DNA from: a virus
IMG/VR virus record: IMGVR_UViG_3300036820_000003
Coordinates: 65,941-129,940 of that record
Reading direction: 5' to 3' (one strand)
Length of the DNA stretch: 64,000 bases
The notes below the pieces were generated by a model that saw only the letters and a program-made list of their open reading frames with translations, had not been told where the DNA came from and did not search any database. Positions 7,678 through 23,877 of the stretch are shown here, piece after piece; the first letter of the stretch is position 1, and each line of letters begins with the position of its first letter. A program made the translations under genes and the position numbers.

Positions 7678-8457
7678 CTATGCCTGAGTGGGAACCACCG
7701 CGAGCGCCATGTCCTCGGCTACCTCACGGTAGTTGGACACCCGGTCGAAGTAGTAGGCGTGAATCCAGGAGTGAGTCTTGGCGATTTCGACGTACTGGCT
7801 GTACGCCTCCTTGCCGGTGCCGTCGCCCAGGATGCCGACGGCCCACACCTCATCCCACTCGCCGTGGGAGCCGAGACCGTTCTTGAGCGTCGCCTGGGCG
7901 AGATACGCCTGGAATGCCTGCGCGTCGGCTAGCGCGCCGTCGGACAGGAGGATCCGAGCGCGAACCGGACGCTCGGCACGATGGGTGCTCCCGAACTCCG
8001 ACATGTAGTGCGCGTCGCCGGCGCGGATAGCCGCCATGATCTCGGTTCCGCCCTGCGGCTTGCCGTCCTTGAAGTACTTAGCGACGAACGCCTGCATCTT
8101 CTCGTCGAAGTTGGAGGAGTTCAGATCGCCGTCGTCGTCCCCCTCCCCGATAGGGCAGAAGATGTTGCTGAACGGGTAGGTGTAGACTCCGCCCTTGTCG
8201 TCGTCGCCGTCGGACTGCTCGGCGGCAGCCTGGCTGTCCAGCTGCTCGAAGGGAATGATGATCTCTCGCAGCGCCGCCACCTGCACATCGTAGGTGTTGA
8301 CCGAGGAGTCGCTGGCCCAGGGCCAGCCTTCGGACTCCGACACGTCGAAGTAGATCTCCGGCTCTACCTCCCGAGGTCCGGTGAGCAGCGGTACGATGCG
8401 CTCGCGCGGAGTGCGATCCGGCCCGCCGGTCGGTGTTTCCGTTCTGGTGATTAGCAC
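7678..8457 (-). CDS. von Willebrand factor A (vWA) domain protein
   Basis: MIDAS DVSES (DxSxS), GGT, LLSDG; SD GGAAGGAAG. Confidence 0.75.
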   Translation of the reverse strand: MLITRTETPTGGPDRTPRERIVPLLTGPREVEPEIYFDVSESEGWPWASDSSVNTYDVQVAALREIIIPFEQLDSQAAAEQSDGDDDKGGVYTYPFSNIFCPIGEGDDDGDLNSSNFDEKMQAFVAKYFKDGKPQGGTEIMAAIRAGDAHYMSEFGSTHRAERPVRARILLSDGALADAQAFQAYLAQATLKNGLGSHGEWDEVWAVGILGDGTGKEAYSQYVEIAKTHSWIHAYYFDRVSNYREVAEDMALAVVPTQA

Positions 8458-8539
8458 GCTCTTCCTTCCGTAAACCCTCTGTGTGGGGGCGTGTGCGTAA
8501 ACAGCCTACAGCCGCCGACTTCGCGATGCAAGGGGCAGG

Positions 8540-9763
8540 CTAAGGGAGCGACGGCAGCGTGACGCCCGCCTCCTGCAGACGGGTTTTGATGTGATTGATC
8601 AGATGATACAGATCCCTGCAGTAAACGGACGGATTGTCGAATGATCCGACTCCGTTCTCGGTCGTCATGTAGCGATTCGGATAGTAGCCTCCTCCGCACA
8701 CGTCGAAGACGGGACAAGTCTGGCAGACGGCTGACGGAGCGGGAGGCGTGTACCCCGGATGGAGGGCTATCTGGTCAAGGGTGGAGGTTCGAACTGAGAG
8801 ACCTGTGGCGGAGCCTCCGTCCGCTGTGGAGCGGAGAGCGTCCAGCAACTCGGCGGAGCCGTCGGCGTTCACCGCGAGGGAACGAGATCGAGGCGGAGGG
8901 CCGATGAAGCCGGCGCGCACATCGCGTCCCAGCAGACGACTGATGATGATGCGGAAGAGGCGGATCTGAGGGGCTCCCGGATCCAGGTACCAGGCGTCGA
9001 AAATATTTTCGAGCCAATCAGACGTCCCTGCGGCAGGAGGGCGATCCCATGTCTTCAGGCGAGGCAGCAGATCCAGCATCGGCGGGGACTGCGAGCGCAG
9101 GAACCTGTACGTCTCCACGGGATCGGAGTCGAGATTGACCACCGCCAGCAGACCCCCGTAACTGGAAGTCCAGCGCGGGGAGCGCAGCAGGGCGAGGGCG
9201 TCCAGAACCTGAGACGTCGAGGAGGATCCGCTTTTGAAGGGACGATGCGAATTCTGGGCGTCGTTGCCGTCCAGGCTCACGCCGAAGCGAATCCCGGCTG
9301 GCGCGAGCGTCGTCAGCATGTCCTCGGTGAGGAGCGTCGCGTTGGTCTGCATGCTGAAGGTGAGAGTGGTTCCGGGGGGCGCCTCCGCTTTGAACGCGCT
9401 GACGATGTCGAGGATGCGAGCGGGACCCGCCAGCAGCGGCTCGCCTCCGTGCAGGATGACGCGGAAGCGAGGGACGCTGTGGGAGCGCAGGTAGGTGCCC
9501 AGACGCGCCGCGAGGGTCAGGTAGATCGAGGGGGATATGAATCTGGGCTGGACGAGCCAGCTAGTATCCGCGAGGGAGTACATGTAGCAGTAATCGCAGT
9601 CCAGATTGCAGCGCGACGCTATCTTGAGCACAAGCTCGCTAAATATCGGAGTTGAAGGGGGTGTCGGGACTGATCTTCGACTGGAAGAGGGAATCAGGGG
9701 CTGAGTCGTTTTCGTCTCTGATCGCGTTGTTGAAGGGGTAGATATCCGGGCTGTCGCTTCCAC
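8540..9763 (-). CDS. fxsB: FxsB-family cyclophane-forming radical SAM/SPASM peptide maturase
   Basis: LVLKIASRCNLDCDYCY (CxxxCxxC), ILHGGEPLL, QTNATLL, GVSLDG, C-terminal CQTCPVFDVCGGGYY...NPSVYCRDLY; GTG 9763 has GGAGGAG SD 7 nt upstream. Confidence 0.88.
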   Translation of the reverse strand: MEATARISTPSTTRSETKTTQPLIPSSSRRSVPTPPSTPIFSELVLKIASRCNLDCDYCYMYSLADTSWLVQPRFISPSIYLTLAARLGTYLRSHSVPRFRVILHGGEPLLAGPARILDIVSAFKAEAPPGTTLTFSMQTNATLLTEDMLTTLAPAGIRFGVSLDGNDAQNSHRPFKSGSSSTSQVLDALALLRSPRWTSSYGGLLAVVNLDSDPVETYRFLRSQSPPMLDLLPRLKTWDRPPAAGTSDWLENIFDAWYLDPGAPQIRLFRIIISRLLGRDVRAGFIGPPPRSRSLAVNADGSAELLDALRSTADGGSATGLSVRTSTLDQIALHPGYTPPAPSAVCQTCPVFDVCGGGYYPNRYMTTENGVGSFDNPSVYCRDLYHLINHIKTRLQEAGVTLPSLP

Positions 9764-9812
9764 AAGAGGTCTCCTCCAGGATGACGGCGAGGGGGGTGAT
9801 GGCGATGGGCAT
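9639..9812 (-). CDS. fxsA: FxSxx-COOH-type RiPP precursor peptide, 57 aa, three tandem cores
   Basis: Hand translation MPIAITPLAVILEETSCGSDSPDIYPFNNAIRDENDSAPDSLFQSKISPDTPFNSDI*; GAAAGG SD; ends FNSDI-COOH directly at the maturase; below ORF-track cutoff. Confidence 0.85.
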   Translation of the reverse strand: MPIAITPLAVILEETSCGSDSPDIYPFNNAIRDENDSAPDSLFQSKISPDTPFNSDI

Positions 9813-9836
9813 GAGACGGCTGCCTTTCGTTGCGGG

Positions 9837-10640
9837 CTATCTGAGGGTGCGGGTGTCGATGAGGCGGATGTTGGAGTCGTTGCCGTCGTAGTGCAGGCCG
9901 GTCACCAGGACGGGAGGGGCGTTGACCAGAGCGCGCTCGTGCAGCGTCTCGTGGAAGAGATGATAGTGCCCGTGGAACACCCGGGTGACTTTGGTTCTGA
10001 TGGCGATGTCCTGCAGGAGCCGGGAGTGCTGACGCGCGATGTGAATCATCGGCTTCCAGGACTCGTGCGGGCGCGGGAGCGACGGGACCCAGCAGTCCGG
10101 CACGTCATGCGAGAGCAGCACGTCGGCCGGTCCGTCGGCGATGATTGAGTCGGCCTGCTCGCGGGTGATCTGCTCGTCCGGCCACCAGTCCACCCCCTCG
10201 GTTCGAGAGTGACGATCGACGCTGACCGCGCCTCCGACCGCGAGCCAGGTCTTCGAATTCCAGTTCCAACGAGTGCCGCGAGGGAGATAGCTGATCGCTT
10301 GGAATCCGCGCAGTCGCAGCGGGTAGTCGTGAGGCTGCTCGTAAGCTGCGAGCAGCTCTTGGATTTCGGGCCACCACTCGTGATTCCCGTCGATCCACCA
10401 CAGCTCCATCCCGAGTTCGACCAGAGCGTTGTCGAGCTGCTGGATGGGCATGAGCCCGGCGGTCCAAGCGGCGGGCTCCATCAGCTTGAATCCGAAGTCG
10501 CCCAGCTGGATGACGATCTTCCGAGTCTCCCCGGCCTGGGCGAACTGGCCGTCGAGAGCCTCCAGGGCGTGCAGGGTCCACTTCAGATTCCCGTGCACGT
10601 CGCCGAGGAGTCCCACGAACTCGGGATCCTTGTCTTCCAT
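9837..10640 (-). CDS. Calcineurin-like metallophosphoesterase
   Basis: GDVHGN, QLGDFG, IDGNHE, LSHD, FHGHYH motifs; SD GAAGGACGA. Confidence 0.9.
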   Translation of the reverse strand: MEDKDPEFVGLLGDVHGNLKWTLHALEALDGQFAQAGETRKIVIQLGDFGFKLMEPAAWTAGLMPIQQLDNALVELGMELWWIDGNHEWWPEIQELLAAYEQPHDYPLRLRGFQAISYLPRGTRWNWNSKTWLAVGGAVSVDRHSRTEGVDWWPDEQITREQADSIIADGPADVLLSHDVPDCWVPSLPRPHESWKPMIHIARQHSRLLQDIAIRTKVTRVFHGHYHLFHETLHERALVNAPPVLVTGLHYDGNDSNIRLIDTRTLR

Positions 10641-15934: not shown

Positions 15935-15973
15935 GCCCGTCTCATTTGGCATTTGACAAGTGAGGCGGGCTTT
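15935..15973 (+). terminator. Hairpin plus TTT closing the peptide operon, overlapping the next promoter
   Basis: GCCCGTCTCA/TGAGGCGGGC then TTT. Confidence 0.45.
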
Positions 15974-15981
15974 GGTATGCT
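15953..15981 (+). promoter_or_regulatory. SigA promoter TTGACA-17-TATGCT, leaderless start of the DNA-modification operon
   Basis: GTG at 15988 lies 6 nt after the -10; no SD. Confidence 0.8.
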
Positions 15982-15987
15982 CGGAAT

Positions 15988-16701
15988 GTGACGGATGACA
16001 AGATTGTCTCGGTTCCGGTCGGGGAACTCAAGTTCTGGCCGGGGAATCCTCGAGTGGGTGACCTGGACGCGATCCGGGAGTCGATTGAGGCGCACGGGGT
16101 GTACAAGCCTCTGCTGGTGCATCGAGGGACCGGACGAGTCATGGTCGGAAACAATACCCTGAAGGCCGCCGTGGAACTGGGGATGGAGCGAGTCCCGGTG
16201 GTGTACAAGGACGTCGACGATGATGTGGCGCGTCGCATCATGCTGGTCGACAATCGGACGTCGGATCGCTCGGACTACGACGAGGAACTGCTGCGAGCGG
16301 CGCTGCTGGCGGTGGCCGACGATTTCTCCGGGACGGGTTATCACGACGACGACGAGGACGTCGCGGCGCTGCTGGCCATTGTGATGGCGGCGGACGAGTA
16401 CAGCTTCGCGGGAGGGGCTGACGAGGAGGAAGTGCTGCTCCTCGACGAGGTGCGAACCGGAGCTGACTGGGCCGAGCTGCCCCAGCAGGAGGCCGCTCGG
16501 GCGGAACGGCAGGCTCAGCAGACTCCCTCGGCCGTCAAGGGGCTGCGCGAGATCATGCTGGTGTATCCGGTGGACGAGCATCGCGAGATGATTTCCGTGT
16601 TGGAAGGGCTCAAGCGGGTGTGGGGGGATCTGCGATATCCGCAGATTGTGGCGCGGGCTCTGCGGGAGGCGGCCGAGCGCGGCGGCGTGGTAGGCTTGTA
16701 A
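15988..16701 (+). CDS. ParB/Srx N-terminal-domain protein
   Basis: ELKFWPGNPR...SIEAHGVYKPLLV...VMVGNNTLKAA...IMLVDNRTSD. Confidence 0.85.
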   Translation: MTDDKIVSVPVGELKFWPGNPRVGDLDAIRESIEAHGVYKPLLVHRGTGRVMVGNNTLKAAVELGMERVPVVYKDVDDDVARRIMLVDNRTSDRSDYDEELLRAALLAVADDFSGTGYHDDDEDVAALLAIVMAADEYSFAGGADEEEVLLLDEVRTGADWAELPQQEAARAERQAQQTPSAVKGLREIMLVYPVDEHREMISVLEGLKRVWGDLRYPQIVARALREAAERGGVVGL

Positions 16702-16702
16702 G

Positions 16703-17626
16703 GTGCAAGCTACGGTGCCTGACGACAGGCTGATGGCGGATTATTTTTCGTTCCATCGGATTCAGATTGCGAATAGGGACGTCGATCCCGTTTACCCCGT
16801 CTTGAAGGCGGTGGGGGACAGGCTGTCGTTGAGCACCGAGGATCGCCTGCGTCTGGTATTCCTGCATGTGGCCTACTACGACATCGGGTCCGCGCTGACG
16901 GCGTTCGAGATAACGGGGGACGTGCACTACTGGTTCAAGTGCACCGAGACTAAACTGCCGTGCGGAACGGAACGTCGTAGGCATCGCATGGGCGACAACC
17001 TGCGCAATCACCTAGCATCTTTGCAGACTAGGGCGTTCGGCTGGCAAGGACTGGAACCGTGGCTCACGCACGGTCTGGACGATGACGCCCGAGGTAATTG
17101 GAAAACGGTGTCAGAGCGACTCATGCAGGTGGACGGAAACGGTCGCTGGGCGGCATTCAAGACCTGCGAGATGCTCAGGGAAGTGTGCGGGCTGCCGTTG
17201 GAGGCCCCGGACATGGGACACGCGAACAGTTCGGGTCCTCGCAAGGGACTGGGGTTGCTGTTTGCGGAGGCGCGAGTGGCGGGGAACTCGGCTGAGGTGA
17301 TAGCGGGATTGGATAGGCTGTCGGTTAGGCTGGTCGAGGAGCTGCGGGGGGCCGGGGCCGAGGCGTCGCTTGCGACCGCGGAGACGACGCTGTGCGACTT
17401 TCACAGTATGTGGAATGGCCGGTACTATCCGGGGCTTGATATCGATGTGATGCACGAGCAGATCGCGATGTCCCCGATGAGCCCGGAGATGCGACGTGAG
17501 GCCTATCTGGCGCGCGAGGCGGCGCTGCCCCTGGCTTACCTCGGTGAAGAGGGCGGCTGGCAGGGCGTCGACGTCAAGCGGAAGCGGATTTACCGGATGA
17601 CGGGGGAGATTGTCACTCGTGGCTGA
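16703..17626 (+). CDS. Amino acid:DNA transferase (aGPT-PPlase clade 2/ADDT-like)
   Basis: DVDPVYPVL, ERRRHR, GRWAAFKTCEML, AETTLCDFHS..NGRYYPGLDID; start may be ATG 16733. Confidence 0.75.
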   Translation: MQATVPDDRLMADYFSFHRIQIANRDVDPVYPVLKAVGDRLSLSTEDRLRLVFLHVAYYDIGSALTAFEITGDVHYWFKCTETKLPCGTERRRHRMGDNLRNHLASLQTRAFGWQGLEPWLTHGLDDDARGNWKTVSERLMQVDGNGRWAAFKTCEMLREVCGLPLEAPDMGHANSSGPRKGLGLLFAEARVAGNSAEVIAGLDRLSVRLVEELRGAGAEASLATAETTLCDFHSMWNGRYYPGLDIDVMHEQIAMSPMSPEMRREAYLAREAALPLAYLGEEGGWQGVDVKRKRIYRMTGEIVTRG

Positions 17627-18494
17627 TGTGGGGGGCTGGACGTTCGGGGCGGAGCTGGAATGGCCGGATGTGGACCGGCGGGCCGAGCTGGGGGGAGGCT
17701 GGGCGTGGTCGGTGACGGACTACACCGTCGTCAACTCGGACGGGACCGCCAACGATCCGCGCGGTGAGCTGAATCGCTGGGGCGGGGAGCTGAACACGCC
17801 GGTTTGCGGATCGGTCGAGGAGCTGGGCGAGCGCGCGGGAGAGATGCGGGCGCAGTTGAAGCCTGGTCACAACTACCGGTCGAATCTCCACATTCACGTG
17901 GCGGCTCCGGAATTTGCGGACGTCGAAAATCTGAAGAGAATCGCTGAATTCTCGCGTCGGGAGCTGCCAGGGGCGCTCAAGATGATGGACCCGCTGAACG
18001 GGCTTTTCTCGGGTCTGACGGACGAGGCGGAAGTGGCGGGGGCGCGGAAGCGAATGGCGCACTCGGAGCGGAGTCGTCACTATTTTGTGTCGGATGCTCG
18101 GCACGCTCGTCGGATGGAGGCTCGGGGGATTGAGGAGATGCTGCGAGCCGAGGTTCCGATGAGTCGCGAAGGGGCTCCGTGCTGGGCGCTGGCGTCGCGG
18201 GAAGCCGTCAATTTGCGTTCGATGCGGAAACACGGGACGATCGAGCTGCGCTGTTTCGCGGCGGACGGATCGGGCGAGAACGTGTGGGCGGCGGCGAGCT
18301 TCAGTCGGGACTGGCTGGCGACGGCGCTTGAGGGAGGCGAGGTGTTCGAGCTTCCCTACTTCTACTCGCTGCCGATTCAGCCTGCTTTCGAGCTGAAGCT
18401 CGAAAGAGGCTGGGAGTGGACGAACCTCAAGCACAATCGTCGGAACGTGGTGCGCGGACGGCTGGCTGAGATGAGGGGCCTGTGCGAATCGTAG
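17610..18494 (+). CDS. Putative amidoligase (COOH-NH2 ligase type 2)
   Basis: TFGAELE, GELNTP, NLHIHV, VNL.....GTIELR motifs. Confidence 0.75.
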   Translation: MSLVADVGGWTFGAELEWPDVDRRAELGGGWAWSVTDYTVVNSDGTANDPRGELNRWGGELNTPVCGSVEELGERAGEMRAQLKPGHNYRSNLHIHVAAPEFADVENLKRIAEFSRRELPGALKMMDPLNGLFSGLTDEAEVAGARKRMAHSERSRHYFVSDARHARRMEARGIEEMLRAEVPMSREGAPCWALASREAVNLRSMRKHGTIELRCFAADGSGENVWAAASFSRDWLATALEGGEVFELPYFYSLPIQPAFELKLERGWEWTNLKHNRRNVVRGRLAEMRGLCES

Positions 18495-18922
18495 CCGTCT
18501 GCACGGGGAACGTCGCCCGGAGCCCCGCCCTGGAGTGCCTGCTGCAGGAAGGGCTGGCGGGGGTGGAAGTGCGCTCGGCGGGGGTGGGCGACAAGGCCGT
18601 CGCCGGGCTGCGGATGAAGCCCTACATGCGGATGATCCTGGGGAGAGAGGGTTTCGGCGACTTCGCGGAATCCCATCGCTCGTTCGTGCTGCGAGGCGAG
18701 GAAGCGATCGCACCGGATCTTTTCGTCGCGGTGAGCCGAGTGCACGTGCGGAAGCTTGGCGGGATGTTTCCCGAGGTGCCGGTTCTCTTGTGCGATCCGA
18801 TTATCCCGGATCCGGCTTTCGGCGGGCTGGATGCCTACGAGGAAGCGTGGAACTTGATTCAGACGGCCTCGGATGATATGATTCGCAGAATCGAATCCGA
18901 GGACTGGGGGAGCTGCGAGTGA
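18482..18922 (+). CDS. Low-molecular-weight protein-tyrosine-phosphatase/ArsC-fold phosphatase
   Basis: VCTGNVARS (Cx5R) P-loop and IPDP general-acid motif. Confidence 0.85.
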   Translation: MRIVAVCTGNVARSPALECLLQEGLAGVEVRSAGVGDKAVAGLRMKPYMRMILGREGFGDFAESHRSFVLRGEEAIAPDLFVAVSRVHVRKLGGMFPEVPVLLCDPIIPDPAFGGLDAYEEAWNLIQTASDDMIRRIESEDWGSCE

Positions 18923-19761
18923 AGATTCTGGTGGTGGGGGCGGGAATCGCCGGGTCGTGCGTGGCTCGACTGGGGTCCGAGCGCGGTCACGAGATGAGGG
19001 TGATCGCGCGAGGCGATGAGCCGGATTCGCTCGCGGCGACGGCGGTGCTGCGTCGAGGTTATCACTCAGGGGGGTCGCTTGAGTCCTGGGACTACGCGAT
19101 CCAGTGCTATGAGCGCTGGGGCGTTCGAATGGCGAGAGGCGGGGCGGTTTCCAGCTATCGGAGACTGCTGGCGGAACCTCGTGCTGATGCGGACTGGACC
19201 CTGATTGATCCGGCTGCCCCCCTGGTGCAGGCCGATGTGAAAAGGGAAGTGGTGTCGGCGCATGGCGGCCGGGTGTGGTTCGGACCGGGGGCGGGGGAGG
19301 CGGGGGACGCCGTTGTGGTGGCCTGTGGCGCTCGCGGCGGGCTGTTGCGGCCGGCGGGCGCTGTTGGCGGCGCGATCGTTACCTATGGCGTTACGTGGGT
19401 CCACGCGCCGGAGGCTTTGAAGGAGCCCGAGGTTATGAGGGTGTATCAGTACGCCCCTTATCGAACTCTGCTGGCGGGTGTGGCCGGAGGAAAGGCGCGC
19501 GTCGGTAGTTCCTCGGCTGCGGGAGAGGAAAAGGCGGTGGAGCAGGGGCGGAAGATGCTCCAGACCGCGTGGGATCTGGGCTGGCTGACGACTCTTGACG
19601 AGTGGGAAATGCGAGTGGGGGCGCGTCTGAAGAGTCAGGAAGTCTGGTGGCGCGAAGGCGACGGTCACTGGGAAATCGGCGGATTTCATCGAACGGGGTA
19701 CGCTTTGGCTCCCGGGGCCGCTCGCGATGTGCTGGACGACATCGAGAAGTCAGCTCTGTGA
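18919..19761 (+). CDS. FAD-dependent oxidoreductase (DAO/glycine-oxidase-like)
   Basis: ILVVGAGIAG dinucleotide-binding motif; C-terminal GGFHRTGYALAPG. Confidence 0.8.
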   Translation: MKILVVGAGIAGSCVARLGSERGHEMRVIARGDEPDSLAATAVLRRGYHSGGSLESWDYAIQCYERWGVRMARGGAVSSYRRLLAEPRADADWTLIDPAAPLVQADVKREVVSAHGGRVWFGPGAGEAGDAVVVACGARGGLLRPAGAVGGAIVTYGVTWVHAPEALKEPEVMRVYQYAPYRTLLAGVAGGKARVGSSSAAGEEKAVEQGRKMLQTAWDLGWLTTLDEWEMRVGARLKSQEVWWREGDGHWEIGGFHRTGYALAPGAARDVLDDIEKSAL

Positions 19762-19767
19762 TTTGAT

Positions 19768-19796
19768 TTGACAGGCTCTTTTTTTTACGCTAGATT
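19768..19796 (+). promoter_or_regulatory. SigA promoter TTGACA-17-TAGATT, leaderless start of the kinase gene
   Basis: ATG 19803 is 6 nt after the -10. Confidence 0.75.
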
Positions 19797-19802
19797 TTGC
19801 TT

Positions 19803-20375
19803 ATGGATCTCGTTTATCTGGCCGGGGCTCCCGCCGTCGGCAAGTCGACTCTGATGGCCAGGCTGACTGAGGGCGCTGAGCGGGTGGCTCGAGCTGACGT
19901 GAAGCTGGTGCCCTACGACGAGCTGAGGGTTGCGGGCGAGGTTGTCGGGGCGGAGATCGGGAAGCGTCGGGTGAACTTCCCGGGGACTGATTCGCTTGCG
20001 ATGAACGCTCTGCCGAACGTCGCTAAATGGCTCGACGCGAAGATGTTCGACGTGGTGTGCGCGGAGGGGGATCGTCTGACGCACGTGCGATTCTTTGGCT
20101 CGGCGGCGGACGCCGGGTACTCGGTGCACGTTTTCCTGCTGCGAGCGCCAATGTCGGTGCTGGATCGGCGATGCGAGGCGCGAGGGTCGAACCAGAGTCG
20201 GAGCTGGCGGCTCAGCCGGGTGACTCTGGGCGAGCGGGTGGCGGCCTGGGCCGAGGCCGAGGACAGGATCTCGATGCACTACCTCGATTCTCAGAGACCT
20301 GTCACGGAGCTGGCCGAGGAAGTGCGACGGGCTGTGCCCGCGATGGAGATTCTGCGTGAGCGGGTGGCTGGCTGA
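19803..20375 (+). CDS. P-loop 5-hydroxymethyluracil-DNA kinase (5-HMUDK)-like
   Basis: GAPAVGKST, PGTDSLAM, EGDRLT, RGSNQS motifs; context with AADT. Confidence 0.75.
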   Translation: MDLVYLAGAPAVGKSTLMARLTEGAERVARADVKLVPYDELRVAGEVVGAEIGKRRVNFPGTDSLAMNALPNVAKWLDAKMFDVVCAEGDRLTHVRFFGSAADAGYSVHVFLLRAPMSVLDRRCEARGSNQSRSWRLSRVTLGERVAAWAEAEDRISMHYLDSQRPVTELAEEVRRAVPAMEILRERVAG

Positions 20376-21634
20376 TGGCTGCCGCCGCTGTTGTGAGGAC
20401 CCCGGGAGTGCGACTGGGCTATCGAGTTGCGGACTCCATTATCGAGCGCGACATTGAAGGTCGGACCTTGGGGGAGGACGACTACGACTGGCTTCTCACG
20501 GGCGGACCGCTGATGGTCAGGAGTCCGGAGGGGGCTCCGGTGGCGTGCTATCTGCCAGGGGTTTTGAAGGGCGTCATGGCCGAGGTCGACGCTTACCGGC
20601 TGCTGCATCCCCTGCACACGATGATGACGAACAATCGAGGCAAGGCGTCGGGTACGCGACGGATCGCCCGGGGGGACGGGGACGGGACGAGGAGCGACTC
20701 CGTCTCGATGTCGAGTCCCACTATCGGGTCGGCGGATCCAGGGTCGGTGTACCGCTACTGTCGCATGACGGAGTGGACCGGGGCGCATCTGCCGGAGTGG
20801 GAGGCGCTGGCTCCCCTGTTCCGGGTGATTGCGAGTCATCTTGAAGAGCGAGTTCCGGAGCGATACAACGCCCAGATGGAGTACGTCCGGAAGACGAATG
20901 AAGCGTGGGTGGTGCCGGGAACGCCGTTCACGACGATCACGGTGAATAACAGTTACTCCACCGGGGTGCACAAGGATCAGGGCGATCTGGAGGCCGGGTT
21001 CTCGACGCTGGCGTGCGTGCGTCGCGGCGAGTACTCGGGCGGCGTGCTGGTCATGCCGCAGTATAGGTTCGGCGTGGACATGCAAGACGGTGATCTTTTG
21101 CTGATGGACGCGCACCAGTGGCACGGGAACACGCGAATGACGTGCGCCTGCGGCGAGCGGATTTTCAATCGATTCTGCGGGGTATGCGGCGCGGAGCGGA
21201 TTTCGCTGGTGTGCTACTATCGGACTCGGATGGCGGAATGCGGGAGCCCTGCGGACGAGCTGGAAAGAGCGCAGGTAAACACCGAGAAGCGATCCCAGCC
21301 GCGCGTCGGACAGGATATCATTGACGCTGCCGCGTCAGTGATGCCGATTCCGATTGCAAATCCTGACCCCGCCCCTGATGACGGGGGGGCTTCAATTGCA
21401 ACTGTGCCTGCGGCGCCGATTGTCGACGAACTTGAGGCTCCCGCCAAGAGGCGCGGTCGTCCCAAGAAGCAGGTCGGGGTGCTCGACGTTGAGGTTGAGG
21501 TTGAGGCCGCGAAGCCGGAACCTGTCGTCAAGCGTCGGGGTCGGCCGCGCAAGGTCGCTGAGCCTGATAAGATCGCAGTGGCCAAGGCCGATTTGATGAA
21601 GTTTGATCCCGTGACCGGTGAGCCTTTGGAGTGA
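20375..21634 (+). CDS. TET/JBP-like 2OG-Fe(II) dioxygenase with C-terminal AT-hooks
   Basis: PFTTITVN, HKD (HxD), WHGN, ERISLVCYYR; tail KRRGRPKK and KRRGRPRK. Confidence 0.8.
   Translation: MAAAAVVRTPGVRLGYRVADSIIERDIEGRTLGEDDYDWLLTGGPLMVRSPEGAPVACYLPGVLKGVMAEVDAYRLLHPLHTMMTNNRGKASGTRRIARGDGDGTRSDSVSMSSPTIGSADPGSVYRYCRMTEWTGAHLPEWEALAPLFRVIASHLEERVPERYNAQMEYVRKTNEAWVVPGTPFTTITVNNSYSTGVHKDQGDLEAGFSTLACVRRGEYSGGVLVMPQYRFGVDMQDGDLLLMDAHQWHGNTRMTCACGERIFNRFCGVCGAERISLVCYYRTRMAECGSPADELERAQVNTEKRSQPRVGQDIIDAAASVMPIPIANPDPAPDDGGASIATVPAAPIVDELEAPAKRRGRPKKQVGVLDVEVEVEAAKPEPVVKRRGRPRKVAEPDKIAVAKADLMKFDPVTGEPLE
21380..21405 (+). repeat. 26-bp dispersed repeat, copy inside the TET-like gene
   Basis: Identical to 13495-13520. 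Confidence 0.9.
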
Positions 21635-21646
21635 GGAGTGAGTGGA

Positions 21647-22180
21647 ATGGGTCGTCGAACCGAAACGATGGAACGCGACGCTAAGATGTACTTGCGTCAC
21701 ACCAACAACATCCCGCACGACGCGATCGCGGCTGAGTTCGGGGTGTCGCTTGCTACTGTCGCGACGGGGATTCGACGGGCCATCCAGGACACCTTCAGGC
21801 TGTCGGCTGAGGAAGAGCGCCAGGTCGTGGACGATAGACTTTTGTATTTGGAGCGTCGTCTGCGGGTGATGGCCTCCAATAAGCACTATCGCGTTTCGGT
21901 TTCAGGGAAGGTCGTCGTCGATCCGATGACCGGGGAGCCGTTGCTGGACGACGAGCCGGAGTATCGGGCTCTGATGGCCATCTCGAAGATCGAGGGGCAG
22001 CGCAGCAAGCTTCTCGGACTCGACATGCCGGTGCGTCATCGAGTCGAGATCACCGACAAGATGGACGAGGAGATCGAGAAGCTCGCGATGGAGCTTTCGA
22101 TCCACGGCGCTGGCGAGAAGGTAGAGCCGGAGCTGCCGGTGGGGACGGGAGTCGTTGATGGTGACGGTAGCGACTCCTGA
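21647..22180 (+). CDS. terS: Terminase small subunit (HTH)
   Basis: IAAEFGVSLATV HTH, RSKLLGLDMP; directly upstream of TerL. Confidence 0.75.
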   Translation: MGRRTETMERDAKMYLRHTNNIPHDAIAAEFGVSLATVATGIRRAIQDTFRLSAEEERQVVDDRLLYLERRLRVMASNKHYRVSVSGKVVVDPMTGEPLLDDEPEYRALMAISKIEGQRSKLLGLDMPVRHRVEITDKMDEEIEKLAMELSIHGAGEKVEPELPVGTGVVDGDGSDS

Positions 22181-23852
22181 TCCTGGGGGGGAAGAGCCGG
22201 AGAAAGGCGATCTGCCTCCGGATTGGCGGGATCTCAGTCCCGAGGCCAAGAAGGCCCTGCTGCATAAGCTCAAAGGGAAACACATCTCTTTGGGACTGGG
22301 CGGACCGCGCAAGTGGCGGGCTCTGGCGCGACCCAAGCAGCTGAGTCCAGATGATCCGGTGCATCATCTGCCGGACGGCAACGGGTTCGCCTGCGCGTGC
22401 GGGGCGCTGGATAGTAGCTTCAACATCTGGATGTTCATGGCCGGCCGAGGCTGCGGGAAGACCTGGGCCGGATCCAACTGGATCATCGAGCAGGCGCTGA
22501 AAAACCCGGGGACCATGTGGGCCGTCGTGGCTCCCACCTTCCGCGACGTCCGAGTGACTTGCTTCGAGGGACCGTCTGGGATACGCCGTCAGCTAGAACC
22601 AGGTGAGGAAGACCAATGGCGACGCAACGAGTTGCGACTCGACCTGGTGAACGGCTCGATTCTCTACGGGTACTCGGCTGACCAGCCTGAGCGACTTCGC
22701 GGGAGTAATCTTTCAGGTGCTTGGTGTGACGAGATGGGCTCGTGGCAATATGAGGAGACCTGGTACGAAGGGCTGGTTCCCGCTCTGCGTATTGGCGAGC
22801 ATCCCCGTGTGATGGTAACCACCACTCCTCGTCCCACCAAGCTGGTGCGCGATCTGTACGGACGTCGCGACGGGACGGTCCACATCACCACCGCCTCGAC
22901 CTGGGAGAACGCCGCAAACCTTTCCGCCGCAGCTCTTGACGAACTACGTCGTCGGTACGAGGGAACGCGCCTGGGTCGTCAGGAGCTTGAAGGCGAGCTG
23001 CTGGAGGACCTTGAGGGGGCTTTGTGGAAGCGATCCGACATCGACGCCGCGCGAGTGCGGCTGGGGGATGTGCCGGATCTGATCCGGGTGGTTGTCGGGA
23101 TTGACCCGGCTGTCACCTCGACCGAAGAGAGTGACGAGACCGGAATCATCGTCGCGGGGGATGACGGGCATGGTCACGGCTACGTGCTGGCGGACTACAG
23201 TATGAAAGGGTCGCCTGAGGCGTGCATGCGGGAGGCCGTCCGGGCATACAAGCGTCACGGGGCTGACTGCATTGTCGCGGAGGTGAACAACGGCGGTGAC
23301 TTCATCGGAGCGGTGGTTCGTGCAGTTGACCCGGATGTGCCATATCACACCGTGCGAGCTAGCAGGGGTAAAGCTCTCCGAGCTGAGCCTGTTTCTGCTC
23401 TTGCTGAGCAACGGAGACTTCACCACGTAGGCAACCTGCCCGAGCTGGAAGATCAATTGTGCGCCTACGTGCCCGGAATAGGCGACTCGCCTGACCGGAT
23501 GGACGCGCTGGTCTGGGCGGTCTTCGAGCTCAAGGGATTGAGTCAGGCCTCGTGGCTGTCGGCCTACGGAGCCTGTCGCTGCTCGGGATGCGACCACGTG
23601 TACACCTCGCATCTTAAGGAGTGCCCGCGCTGCCGGACGGCGAATCCGGCGGAGGCTGAGCGGATTGCGGCTCGGGAGCGAGATGAGCCGACGGAGGAGG
23701 AGCCTGTCGTGGGCGGCTGGGCGTCGGTTTATCACCTGCGTCGCTGCGAGCGAGGGCACGCCTACCCCGAGAAAATGGGGGCCGGGGGATGCCCGCGCTG
23801 CCGATCGGACGGACTGGGTTTTTTGAAGTCGGCCGGTCGCGCTGTGCGTTGA
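22155..23852 (+). CDS. terL: Terminase large subunit with C-terminal zinc-ribbon extension
   Basis: AGRGCGKT Walker A, LRGSNLSGAWCDE Walker B, GIDPA, DETGII, SPDRMDALVWA nuclease motifs. Confidence 0.95.
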   Translation: MMVTVATPDPGGEEPEKGDLPPDWRDLSPEAKKALLHKLKGKHISLGLGGPRKWRALARPKQLSPDDPVHHLPDGNGFACACGALDSSFNIWMFMAGRGCGKTWAGSNWIIEQALKNPGTMWAVVAPTFRDVRVTCFEGPSGIRRQLEPGEEDQWRRNELRLDLVNGSILYGYSADQPERLRGSNLSGAWCDEMGSWQYEETWYEGLVPALRIGEHPRVMVTTTPRPTKLVRDLYGRRDGTVHITTASTWENAANLSAAALDELRRRYEGTRLGRQELEGELLEDLEGALWKRSDIDAARVRLGDVPDLIRVVVGIDPAVTSTEESDETGIIVAGDDGHGHGYVLADYSMKGSPEACMREAVRAYKRHGADCIVAEVNNGGDFIGAVVRAVDPDVPYHTVRASRGKALRAEPVSALAEQRRLHHVGNLPELEDQLCAYVPGIGDSPDRMDALVWAVFELKGLSQASWLSAYGACRCSGCDHVYTSHLKECPRCRTANPAEAERIAARERDEPTEEEPVVGGWASVYHLRRCERGHAYPEKMGAGGCPRCRSDGLGFLKSAGRAVR

Positions 23853-23877
23853 CAAGTCGAGCGAAGTTTGCTAGACT
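23849..23877 (+). promoter_or_regulatory. SigA promoter TTGACA-17-TGcTAGACT, leaderless
   Basis: ATG 23884 is 6 nt after the -10. Confidence 0.8.

Follow-up and report, generated by a model that had tools for sequence, protein, structure and literature searches.

A carboxylate-amine ligase paired with a low-molecular-weight phosphatase in a predicted viral pathway of thymine hypermodification

Organisation of the gene cluster

The subject of this study is a run of three consecutive genes, encoding a predicted amidoligase, a low-molecular-weight (LMW) Cys phosphatase and a flavoenzyme, in a 64,000-nt stretch of viral DNA (the window; positions 65,941–129,940 of IMG/VR record IMGVR_UViG_3300036820_000003). 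The source record spans 129,940 bp, carries direct terminal repeats and is estimated to be complete; the window represents its second half, and the G+C content is ~63%. The plus-strand order is ParB-like protein, amino acid:DNA transferase (AADT), amidoligase, phosphatase, flavoenzyme, kinase, Tet_JBP dioxygenase, a small open reading frame (ORF) and the large terminase (Table 1). An earlier note on this DNA had described three translationally coupled genes directly after that for AADT, and we identified all of these ORFs at this location. A megablast comparison of the cluster with 50,697 phage records gave no match, and no cultured phage is close to it at the DNA level. The host was not fixed by similarity of the terminase.

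The ligase gene overlaps that of AADT by up to 17 nt, the phosphatase gene overlaps that of the ligase by 13 nt, and the flavoenzyme and phosphatase genes share 4 nt (GTGA). A purine-rich run precedes each of the three starts. The amidoligase ORF opens with TTG at 17610, ahead of the AADT stop at 17626, and contains in-frame GTG codons at 17619 and 17628 downstream of the Shine-Dalgarno-like run GGGGGAGA. One of these two codons is probably the true start, because this run precedes them and relatives align from about residue 7. The amidoligase ends with TAG at 18492–18494, past the phosphatase GTG at 18482 (GAGGGG upstream), and the phosphatase ends with TGA at 18920–18922, next to the flavoenzyme GTG at 18919 (GGGGGA upstream).

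Table 1. Features of the cluster in window coordinates, with the evidence for each assignment.
Feature	Coordinates	Strand	Evidence
Promoter-like site, TTGACA-17-TATGCT	15953–15981	+	Consensus match only; 7 nt before the ParB GTG at 15988
ParB-like protein	15988–16701	+	PF02195 ParB_N, E 1.3e-7; phrog_723, E 2.9e-37
AADT, clade-2 aGPT-Pplase type	16703–17626	+	PF18724, E 7e-17
Predicted carboxylate-amine ligase, glutamine synthetase/GCS2 fold, minimal (294 aa), divergent Amidoligase_2 branch	17610–18494	+	Profiles of relatives, fold, motifs
LMW Cys phosphatase (LMWPc), intact catalytic set	18482–18922	+	PF01451, E 4.8e-9, 37 bits against a cut-off of 23.2
Short (280 aa) flavin adenine dinucleotide (FAD) enzyme, gp47/NGTO (N-alpha-glycinylthymidine lyase) family	18919–19761	+	phrog_16743, E 2.7e-27; DAO N-terminus, E 2.5e-8, GxGxxG
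Promoter-like site, TTGACA-17-TAGATT	19768–19796	+	Consensus match only; before the kinase, ATG 19803 lies 7 nt beyond
5-Hydroxymethyldeoxyuridine (5-hmdU) DNA kinase (P-loop nucleotide kinase 3)	19797–20375	+	PF18751, E 6.5e-30
Tet/JBP-type 5-methylpyrimidine dioxygenase, predicted source of 5-hydroxymethyluracil (5-hmU) in DNA	20375–21634	+	PF12851 Tet_JBP, E 7e-22

Amidoligase

The amidoligase itself matched nothing in Pfam (E 0.01), PHROG or NCBIfam, and the whole genome contained no PF12224 match at E 0.1. An exhaustive phmmer search of 1.84 billion representatives retrieved relatives in 245 clusters at 50% identity (E up to 0.001), and 44 of the 66 that were aligned match PF12224 (Amidoligase_2; best 5.9e-11). 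Searches of PDB sequences with phmmer returned nothing useful for this protein or for the flavoenzyme. The AlphaFold model of the amidoligase has a predicted local distance difference test score (pLDDT) of 95.5 and a predicted template modelling score (pTM) of 0.92. In a structural search of 48,161 chains, the top 19 were all YbdK, glutamate-cysteine ligase (GCL), glutamine synthetase (GS), PafA or Dop (Z 10.7–6.5, 158–238 residues aligned), after which the scores fell to Z 4.2. The best of these was the YbdK-like protein 1tt4 (Z 10.7), with PafA and Dop at Z 7.5–7.8. Foldseek placed the same families on top, with weak scores (E 3e-3).

The motifs G13-A-E15-L-E17, G58-G-E60, N92-L-H94-I-H96, R197/N201 and E212-L-R214 are present, and E15, E17, R197, N201, E212 and R214 are conserved in at least 90% of the 66 sequences. 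We take these motifs to correspond to the catalytic residues of GS, a general mapping and not one from residue-level superposition. The label amidoligase, already applied in the earlier note, is right even though the protein has no direct family match: most of the aligned relatives match PF12224, and the model matches only carboxylate-amine ligases before the break in Z scores. Ligase activity is predicted on these grounds. A guanidino-kinase-like role was considered and rejected, as McsB reached only Z 4.2, under that break. When the phage records were searched by tblastn, the ligase matched only phage Simon and a Vibrio jumbo phage. We also observed that the E-x-E and H-x-H motifs are gone from the representatives P0006–P0011 (e.g. 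ARLAW, SMRASV), whose identity to the window ligase is 34–41%; they may be inactive paralogues that serve in structure or regulation.

Phosphatase

The PF01451 match covers positions 1–142 of 144. The protein contains the phosphate loop C7-TGNVA-R13-S14 (C-x5-R-S) and the D-P general-acid loop D110-P111, and C7, G9, N10, R13, S14, D110 and P111 are invariant in 26 ligase-linked phosphatase homologues. Based on these residues, the enzyme looks catalytically active. Comparison with PDB sequences gave 24 matches at E up to 1, led by the arginine phosphatase YwlE (4pic, E 5.6e-9) and followed by bacterial tyrosine phosphatases. An arsenate reductase role was also considered. Thioredoxin-coupled arsenate reductases need two further conserved Cys residues for their disulfide relay, and this role was rejected for want of such residues: in the alignment of homologues C7 alone is conserved, whereas C19, C104 and C145 are not.

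Flavoenzyme

The model of the flavoenzyme (pLDDT 93) has the crystal structures of PaMx11 gp47/NGTO, 8z79 and 8z2o, as its top fold matches (ranks 1–3; E 3e-17 to 1e-16, template modelling score 0.76–0.78). The next matches, CmiS2 and glycine oxidase, are at E 3e-12, so that gp47/NGTO is better by five orders of magnitude. The two proteins are also similar in length (280 versus 286 aa), and their pairwise alignment gives 28% identity over 216 aa (E 5e-4). PaMx11 gp47/NGTO cuts N-alpha-glycinylthymidine to 5-aminomethyldeoxyuridine (5-aminomethyl-dU) (PMC8989533, PMC11472151). In that enzyme P179-Y180-R181 forms a base-flipping wedge and R242 is the likely binder of the glycine carboxylate (PMC11472151). 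In our alignment the wedge corresponds to P180-Y181-R182 of the window flavoenzyme; P180 and R236 (equivalent to R242) are invariant and Y181 is nearly so. The subgroup of the window enzyme differs at Trp51, a stacking residue, Tyr244 and Lys268, which are replaced by Tyr, Lys and Arg, respectively. The likeness to the glycyl-thymine enzyme of PaMx11 that the earlier note had drawn thus agrees with the structural ranking of the model and with the retention of the wedge and the carboxylate-binding Arg.

Survey of amidoligase loci

We scanned IMG/VR with patterns from a 12-sequence ligase alignment, which gave 39 viral loci, and annotated these with iteratively built hidden Markov models (HMMs) seeded from the window proteins and with Pfam on recurrent neighbours. 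Because the scan was seeded with motifs of closer relatives, the fractions that follow describe only the closer part of the ligase family. AADT is encoded in 31 of the 39 loci, a phosphatase directly beside the ligase in 28, the kinase in 27, the flavoenzyme in 18 (within locus bounds), Tet/JBP in 14, a thymidylate-synthase homologue in 13 and a glutamine amidotransferase (GATase) in 5. Lack of co-occurrence with AADT and kinase had been set beforehand as the outcome that would count against a joint role of these genes, and the neighbourhoods show the opposite. The full set of ligase, phosphatase, flavoenzyme, AADT and kinase is found in at least 17 viral loci. Two layouts of it occur: ParB-[TET]-AADT-ligase-phosphatase-FAD-kinase-[TET], as in the window, and AADT-FAD-ligase-phosphatase-kinase-AADT2-ThyA...PolA.

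The phosphatase is linked to the ligase beyond simple adjacency. In five representatives (P0016, P0019, P0020, P0036 and P0105) the two are fused, and the ligase-domain tree gathers all phosphatase-linked ligases in a single clade of 34 rows (support 91/93), with loci that have three or four tandem ligases and no phosphatase forming separate clades. Searching with the phosphatase itself retrieved no longer (fused) relatives. In the stretches of PaMx11 and Phelemich that we examined, kinase and AADT are present and neither ligase nor phosphatase was found. A tblastn search of the 50,697 phage records with the phosphatase matched none of the records found with the AADT query. The ligase is in addition fused to base-modification domains, namely 5-hmdU kinase (L045, and weakly P0028) and a TET-associated glycosyltransferase (P0036); no locus of the latter ligase-phosphatase-glycosyltransferase fusion was found by search.

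The most informative comparison is with PaMx11, in which the genes are ordered gp45, gp46 (AADT), gp47 (flavin lyase), gp48 (acetyltransferase), gp49 (kinase), gp50, gp51 (ThyA homologue), gp52, gp53 and gp55 (polymerase). Eight PaMx11-like loci, two of them duplicates, were identified: L006 (phage Simon, PQ683277), L013, L018, L020/L021, L027, L034 and L040. All keep the order gp45-gp46-gp47-[X]-gp49-gp50-gp51, where X is the ligase-phosphatase pair and not gp48. Apart from gp48, every PaMx11 gene named above, gp52, gp53 and gp55 included, has an orthologue at the corresponding place in these loci. Their gp46 orthologues are 37–52% and their gp47 orthologues 36–49% identical to those of PaMx11 (Simon gp47 orthologue, 42%, E 1e-68). 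The suggestion in the earlier note of an amidoligase standing in for the acetyltransferase gains independent support from this position of the pair. We found no evidence for glutamate, the acyl donor it had offered as an example.

A related comparison is provided by Mycobacterium phage Phelemich, which encodes ParB, a weak Tet_JBP-like match (E 8e-5, below the cut-off), AADT, the FAD enzyme, kinase and TerL without the pair; the window contains the same module with the pair inserted. Based on the PaMx11-like and Phelemich comparisons, the pair appears as a cassette added to, or swapped into, 5-aminomethyl-dU pathways. We note that in the Phelemich record (NC_022063, 1–3869) the gene annotated as queuine tRNA-ribosyltransferase is the one that matches Tet_JBP, and the gene annotated as small terminase matches P-loop nucleotide kinase 3 (E 2.8e-73); PHROGs 800 and 6059 bear the same doubtful names. 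Judged by their families, the ParB, AADT, flavoenzyme, Tet_JBP-like and kinase genes of Phelemich would form a thymine hypermodification module in a cultured mycobacteriophage.

The supply of the amine shows a second regularity. Of the 26 loci with both the pair and AADT, 19 have the flavoenzyme, 4 have a GATase directly before AADT (L011, L016, L026 and L028) and 3 (L017, L025 and L038) are cut on the relevant side, so every one with enough contig has one or the other. In the complete 40-kb genomes behind L012 and L014, the pair lies 6 kb from a ParB-TET-AADT-FAD-kinase block, which places flavoenzyme and kinase just beyond the locus bounds. Flavoenzyme and GATase were not seen together in the loci examined. 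L045 (5806–10721) encodes a GATase, AADT, a GNAT acetyltransferase, a 542-aa fusion of ligase and 5-hmdU DNA kinase 2 (PF18747 HMUD2, E 7e-8) and a thymidylate-synthase homologue, with no flavoenzyme. Since the acetyltransferase of this locus needs an amine, GATase and AADT together probably yield 5-aminomethyl-dU without a further enzyme. The pattern is most simply read as two ways of making the same amine, with the ligase-phosphatase pair acting after either, and this agrees with acylation of the amine as proposed in the earlier note.

Several loci depart from this scheme. L030, L031, L035, L036, L039 and L044 have one to four ligase paralogues (in tandem in L030, L031, L035 and L036) and no phosphatase; their neighbours include a LuxE-like acyl-protein synthetase, a LuxC-like acyl-CoA reductase, a class-III aminotransferase and a 5'-3' exonuclease, some with Tet_JBP nearby. 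These loci may represent another base-modification pathway, one that would build its amine from an acid. Vibrio phage 2.275.O (MG592671; L047, 6866–12074) encodes a ligase homologue of 29% identity (E 7e-60 to the family HMM) among genes annotated as 7-cyano-7-deazaguanine reductase, queuosine biosynthesis protein, Ntn aminohydrolase and GTP cyclohydrolase I. This setting hints that its ligase acts on a 7-deazaguanine base; no phosphatase was found within 7 kb of the ligase, and the record has no TGT match. A 7-deazaguanine setting for the pair itself was considered and is unsupported, as the records behind L022, L029, L039, L044 and L047 have no TGT/DpdA match.

Proposed pathway and alternatives

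Taking these observations together, we propose that the three genes encode tailoring enzymes of a post-replicative thymine hypermodification pathway of six steps, a scheme to which we give somewhat better than even chances. The ParB-assisted Tet/JBP dioxygenase would convert T in DNA to 5-hmdU, and the P-loop kinase would phosphorylate this to 5-phosphomethyl-dU, both as judged from family membership and the published biochemistry of homologues. AADT would then exchange the phosphate for an amino acid, most likely glycine attached through its alpha-amine, and the gp47/NGTO-like flavoenzyme would cleave the adduct oxidatively to leave 5-aminomethyl-dU; for these two steps family membership is joined by conserved pocket residues. 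In the fifth step, to which comparative genomics points, the amidoligase would use ATP to activate a free carboxylic acid as acyl phosphate and join it to the primary amine, giving a 5-(acylaminomethyl)-dU that differs from the acetylated base of PaMx11. The phosphatase, as partner of the ligase, would act last and most likely remove a phosphate from the attached group or from a phosphorylated intermediate, in a synthase-then-phosphatase logic; this is the weakest step of the scheme. Catalytic residues are intact in both ligase and phosphatase, and the product of the phage is probably a thymine derivative not yet described.

Pairs of this kind are familiar from sucrose, trehalose and glucosylglycerate synthesis, in which a synthase is coupled to a phosphatase. 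By analogy, and because the phosphatase follows the ligase and not the kinase, we tentatively, and at less than even odds, favour a role after the ligase, either removal of a phosphate on the attached acid or clearance of a phosphorylated by-product. Of the two ideas in the earlier note, dephosphorylation of an intermediate fits better than editing of unused 5-phosphomethyl-dU. It is conceivable, if less than an even prospect, that the pair forms a self-contained module that ligates a phosphorylated carboxylic acid onto the aminomethyl group of the base and then strips the phosphate. If so, it would produce a family of undescribed N-acyl-aminomethyl-deoxyuridines, and no ATP-dependent amide ligase or Cys phosphatase would have been shown before to work on adducts of DNA bases. 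Such a module could move between pathways fed by a thymidylate synthase and pathways fed by a dioxygenase, and perhaps to glycosylated or 7-deazaguanine bases as well.

Several observations weigh against the six-step scheme. The AADT is only 22–25% identical to characterised glycine transferases, and for this reason glycine as its substrate is assumed. The flavoenzyme is likewise a distant member of the gp47 family (28% identity), with Trp51 replaced by Tyr and Tyr244 by Lys. The gene order of the window (AADT, ligase, phosphatase, flavoenzyme) differs from the proposed order of reactions, and representative P0095 fuses a GATase to the ligase, which fits amidation of a DNA-borne carboxylate by ammonia better than acylation of an amine. 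The L022 record, a complete IMG/VR genome of 109,475 bp, has a ligase-phosphatase pair followed by a radical-SAM/Fer4_12 gene (locus 7965–10277) and no detectable AADT, P-loop kinase 3 or HMUDK, the last of these being a weak negative given that the HMUDK control matched nowhere. This genome indicates that the pair can function outside such a pathway; in the tree the ligase of this genome falls within the PaMx11-like clade. The scheme as a whole is read from sequence and predicted structure.

The GATase-ligase fusion leads to a different use of the ligase, in which ammonia or another amine would be joined to the carboxylate of the amino-acid adduct (e.g. N-alpha-glycinylthymidine) to give an amide such as glycinamide-thymine, and the flavoenzyme would act on another bond or substrate. 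Carboxylate-amine ligases activate carboxylates, the AADT product has a free one and the window ligase gene directly follows that of AADT; GATase genes also occur in flavoenzyme-free loci. However, no GATase was found in the window genome, and where a GATase is present it usually adjoins AADT and not the ligase. The PaMx11-like loci argue further against this use, because their close gp47 orthologues (up to 49%) should already remove the carboxylate part and the pair there replaces an amine-acting enzyme. The lack of co-occurrence of flavoenzyme and GATase in the loci examined also fits two routes to one amine. On this evidence we consider carboxylate amidation unlikely, though it retains some standing beside amine acylation.

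For the phosphatase, the alternative is that it edits the pathway by returning unreacted 5-phosphomethyl-dU to 5-hmdU, which would keep a reactive intermediate low or determine the thymines that remain modified. No phosphomonoester other than 5-phosphomethyl-dU is known in the pathway (PMC8989533), the phosphatase has intact catalytic residues and its gene often lies by that of the kinase, in the order ligase-phosphatase-kinase in many loci. Against this, the phosphatase is tied to the ligase by 28 adjacent pairs and five fusions and was not found in the PaMx11 and Phelemich regions, where kinase and AADT occur without the ligase. The phage-record search described above matched no record found with AADT, and no 5-hmdU kinase was detected in the complete L022 genome, which encodes the pair. 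Editing is thus quite unlikely in comparison with a role after the ligase.

The L022 genome, which has the pair without AADT or kinase, could also be taken to mean that ligase and phosphatase act off DNA, on a protein, the cell wall or a small metabolite. Other phage Amidoligase_2 genes have been assigned to putative peptidoglycan-modification modules (PMC11945000), and the protein ligases PafA and Dop share the fold. This is very unlikely for the window, where the genes overlap those of AADT and the flavoenzyme in one operon; AADT accompanies the ligase in most of the surveyed loci, the ligase is fused elsewhere to 5-hmdU kinase and TET-associated glycosyltransferase domains, and the pair takes the position of a DNA acetyltransferase. 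Amidation by the ligase of 5-carboxyuracil, a base-borne carboxylate that could arise because phage T-dioxygenases can oxidise iteratively (PMC13229309), is highly improbable, since the pair is also found in 13 loci with a thymidylate-synthase homologue and no dioxygenase, and kinase, AADT and flavoenzyme would be left without a role.

Amine acylation followed by dephosphorylation would be of interest for several reasons. Hypermodified thymines shield phage DNA from restriction and CRISPR nucleases, and their enzymes are under development as tools for DNA chemistry. Few pathways to such bases have been solved, and the cluster suggests one more way of finishing them, in which ATP would drive the acylation of 5-aminomethyl-dU in concert with a phosphatase. 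The ligase-phosphatase step is conserved in dozens of viral contigs from two unrelated phage lineages, and it would offer a first functional setting for the small Amidoligase_2 branch represented by our 245 clusters and for phage LMW phosphatases.

Neighbouring genes and transcription

The AADT of the window is 41–43% identical to its nearest cultured relatives, the AADTs of Gordonia, Mycobacterium, Rhodococcus and Microbacterium phages, and 24.5% identical to M6 gp51. It retains the E-T-x-x-C motif and the pocket Trp of PaMx11 gp46. No thymidylate-synthase homologue was found in the genome. ParB_N and Tet_JBP proteins are encoded in one cluster (15988–21634) with no methyltransferase among the genes between, and this context matches that of the ParB-associated dioxygenases of Clade C1 (PMC13229309), a comparison of context and not a placement in the clade. 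By analogy with the work of O'Toole et al, 2026 (PMC13229309), the ParB-like protein probably activates the thymine dioxygenase. A 180-aa ORF (21638–22180) separates the dioxygenase gene from that of the large terminase. It has a match in phrog_645 (E 1.5e-12), a family named RNase E, and conserved counterparts in L007 and L008; its position suggests that it may encode the small terminase subunit.

Promoter-like sites number 5 in the region against 1.1 expected in shuffled sequences. In addition to the two listed in Table 1, a third near-identical site (TTGACA, 17 nt, TAnnnT) was observed at 23849–23877, likewise ending ~7 nt before a start codon. The arrangement suggests two units, ParB-AADT-ligase-phosphatase-flavoenzyme and kinase-dioxygenase-terminase, and the site at 15953 is the likely start of the first of these as an operon. 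It also suggests leaderless transcripts, with the kinase starting at ATG 19803 inside the listed ORF rather than at TTG 19797.

Comparison with known systems

Clusters of this type, and their association with amidoligases, are already known. Lee et al, 2021 reconstituted the PaMx11 pathway, reported contigs with TET_JBP instead of the deoxyuridine monophosphate (dUMP) hydroxymethylase and remarked on Pfam matches to amidoligases, with no function assigned, in clusters of this kind (PMC8989533). O'Toole et al, 2026 showed ParB-associated phage 5mYOX enzymes to be thymine dioxygenases linked with GATases, kinases and AADTs (PMC13229309). A phosphatase in such clusters is not mentioned in PMC8989533, PMC13229309 or the other literature searched, with Iyer et al, 2013 (NAR) outside that search. 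The trio that the earlier note had called unusual is therefore real as a set and not unique, recurring in the viral loci counted above and in the deposited phage Simon. Three points are new: the exchange of the acetyltransferase for the ligase, the strict association of the latter with an LMW phosphatase, and the pattern of either flavoenzyme or GATase.

The closest characterised system is the 5-acetylaminomethyl-dU pathway of PaMx11 (PMC8989533, PMC11472151), with which the window shares the kinase, AADT, a gp47-family flavoenzyme, the predicted 5-aminomethyl-dU intermediate and a final modification of the amine. In the window, however, 5-hmU would be made on DNA by the ParB-assisted Tet/JBP dioxygenase, whereas PaMx11 uses a dUMP hydroxymethylase, and amidoligase and LMW phosphatase stand in place of the acetyltransferase. 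No acetyltransferase was found between 15988 and 21634, the stretch to which the GNAT search was confined and in which all genes are otherwise assigned. The AADT and flavoenzyme of the window are distant relatives of their PaMx11 counterparts (22–28% identity). The ParB-dependent thymine dioxygenase clusters of Clade C1 5mYOX (PMC13229309) likewise combine a ParB-like protein, Tet/JBP, a P-loop kinase and AADT; that study characterises the dioxygenase and ParB only, and its text does not include amidoligase, phosphatase or flavoenzyme. In the left-end module of Phelemich and Reprobate (Acadianvirus), whose DNA modification is unreported in the literature searched, ParB, the weak Tet_JBP-like match, AADT (42% identity), flavoenzyme (39%) and P-loop kinase 3 are shared with the window, as are gene order and the place by the large terminase, whereas the ligase-phosphatase pair is absent.

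Two further comparisons concern the chemistry. The MnmC(o) step in tRNA, from cmnm5U to nm5U, is likewise a flavin-dependent cut of a glycine adduct at uracil C5 that leaves an aminomethyl group for subsequent modification (PMC8989533), but its substrate is RNA and the next step is a methylation that depends on S-adenosylmethionine instead of an ATP-dependent acylation. With YbdK/GCS2, GCL and GS the window ligase shares the fold (Z 9–10.7) and the acidic, His and Arg motifs at an identity of 10–13%. It differs from these enzymes in its length of only 294 aa, in lacking oligomerisation and N-terminal domains, and in its proposed amine substrate, an adduct on a DNA base.

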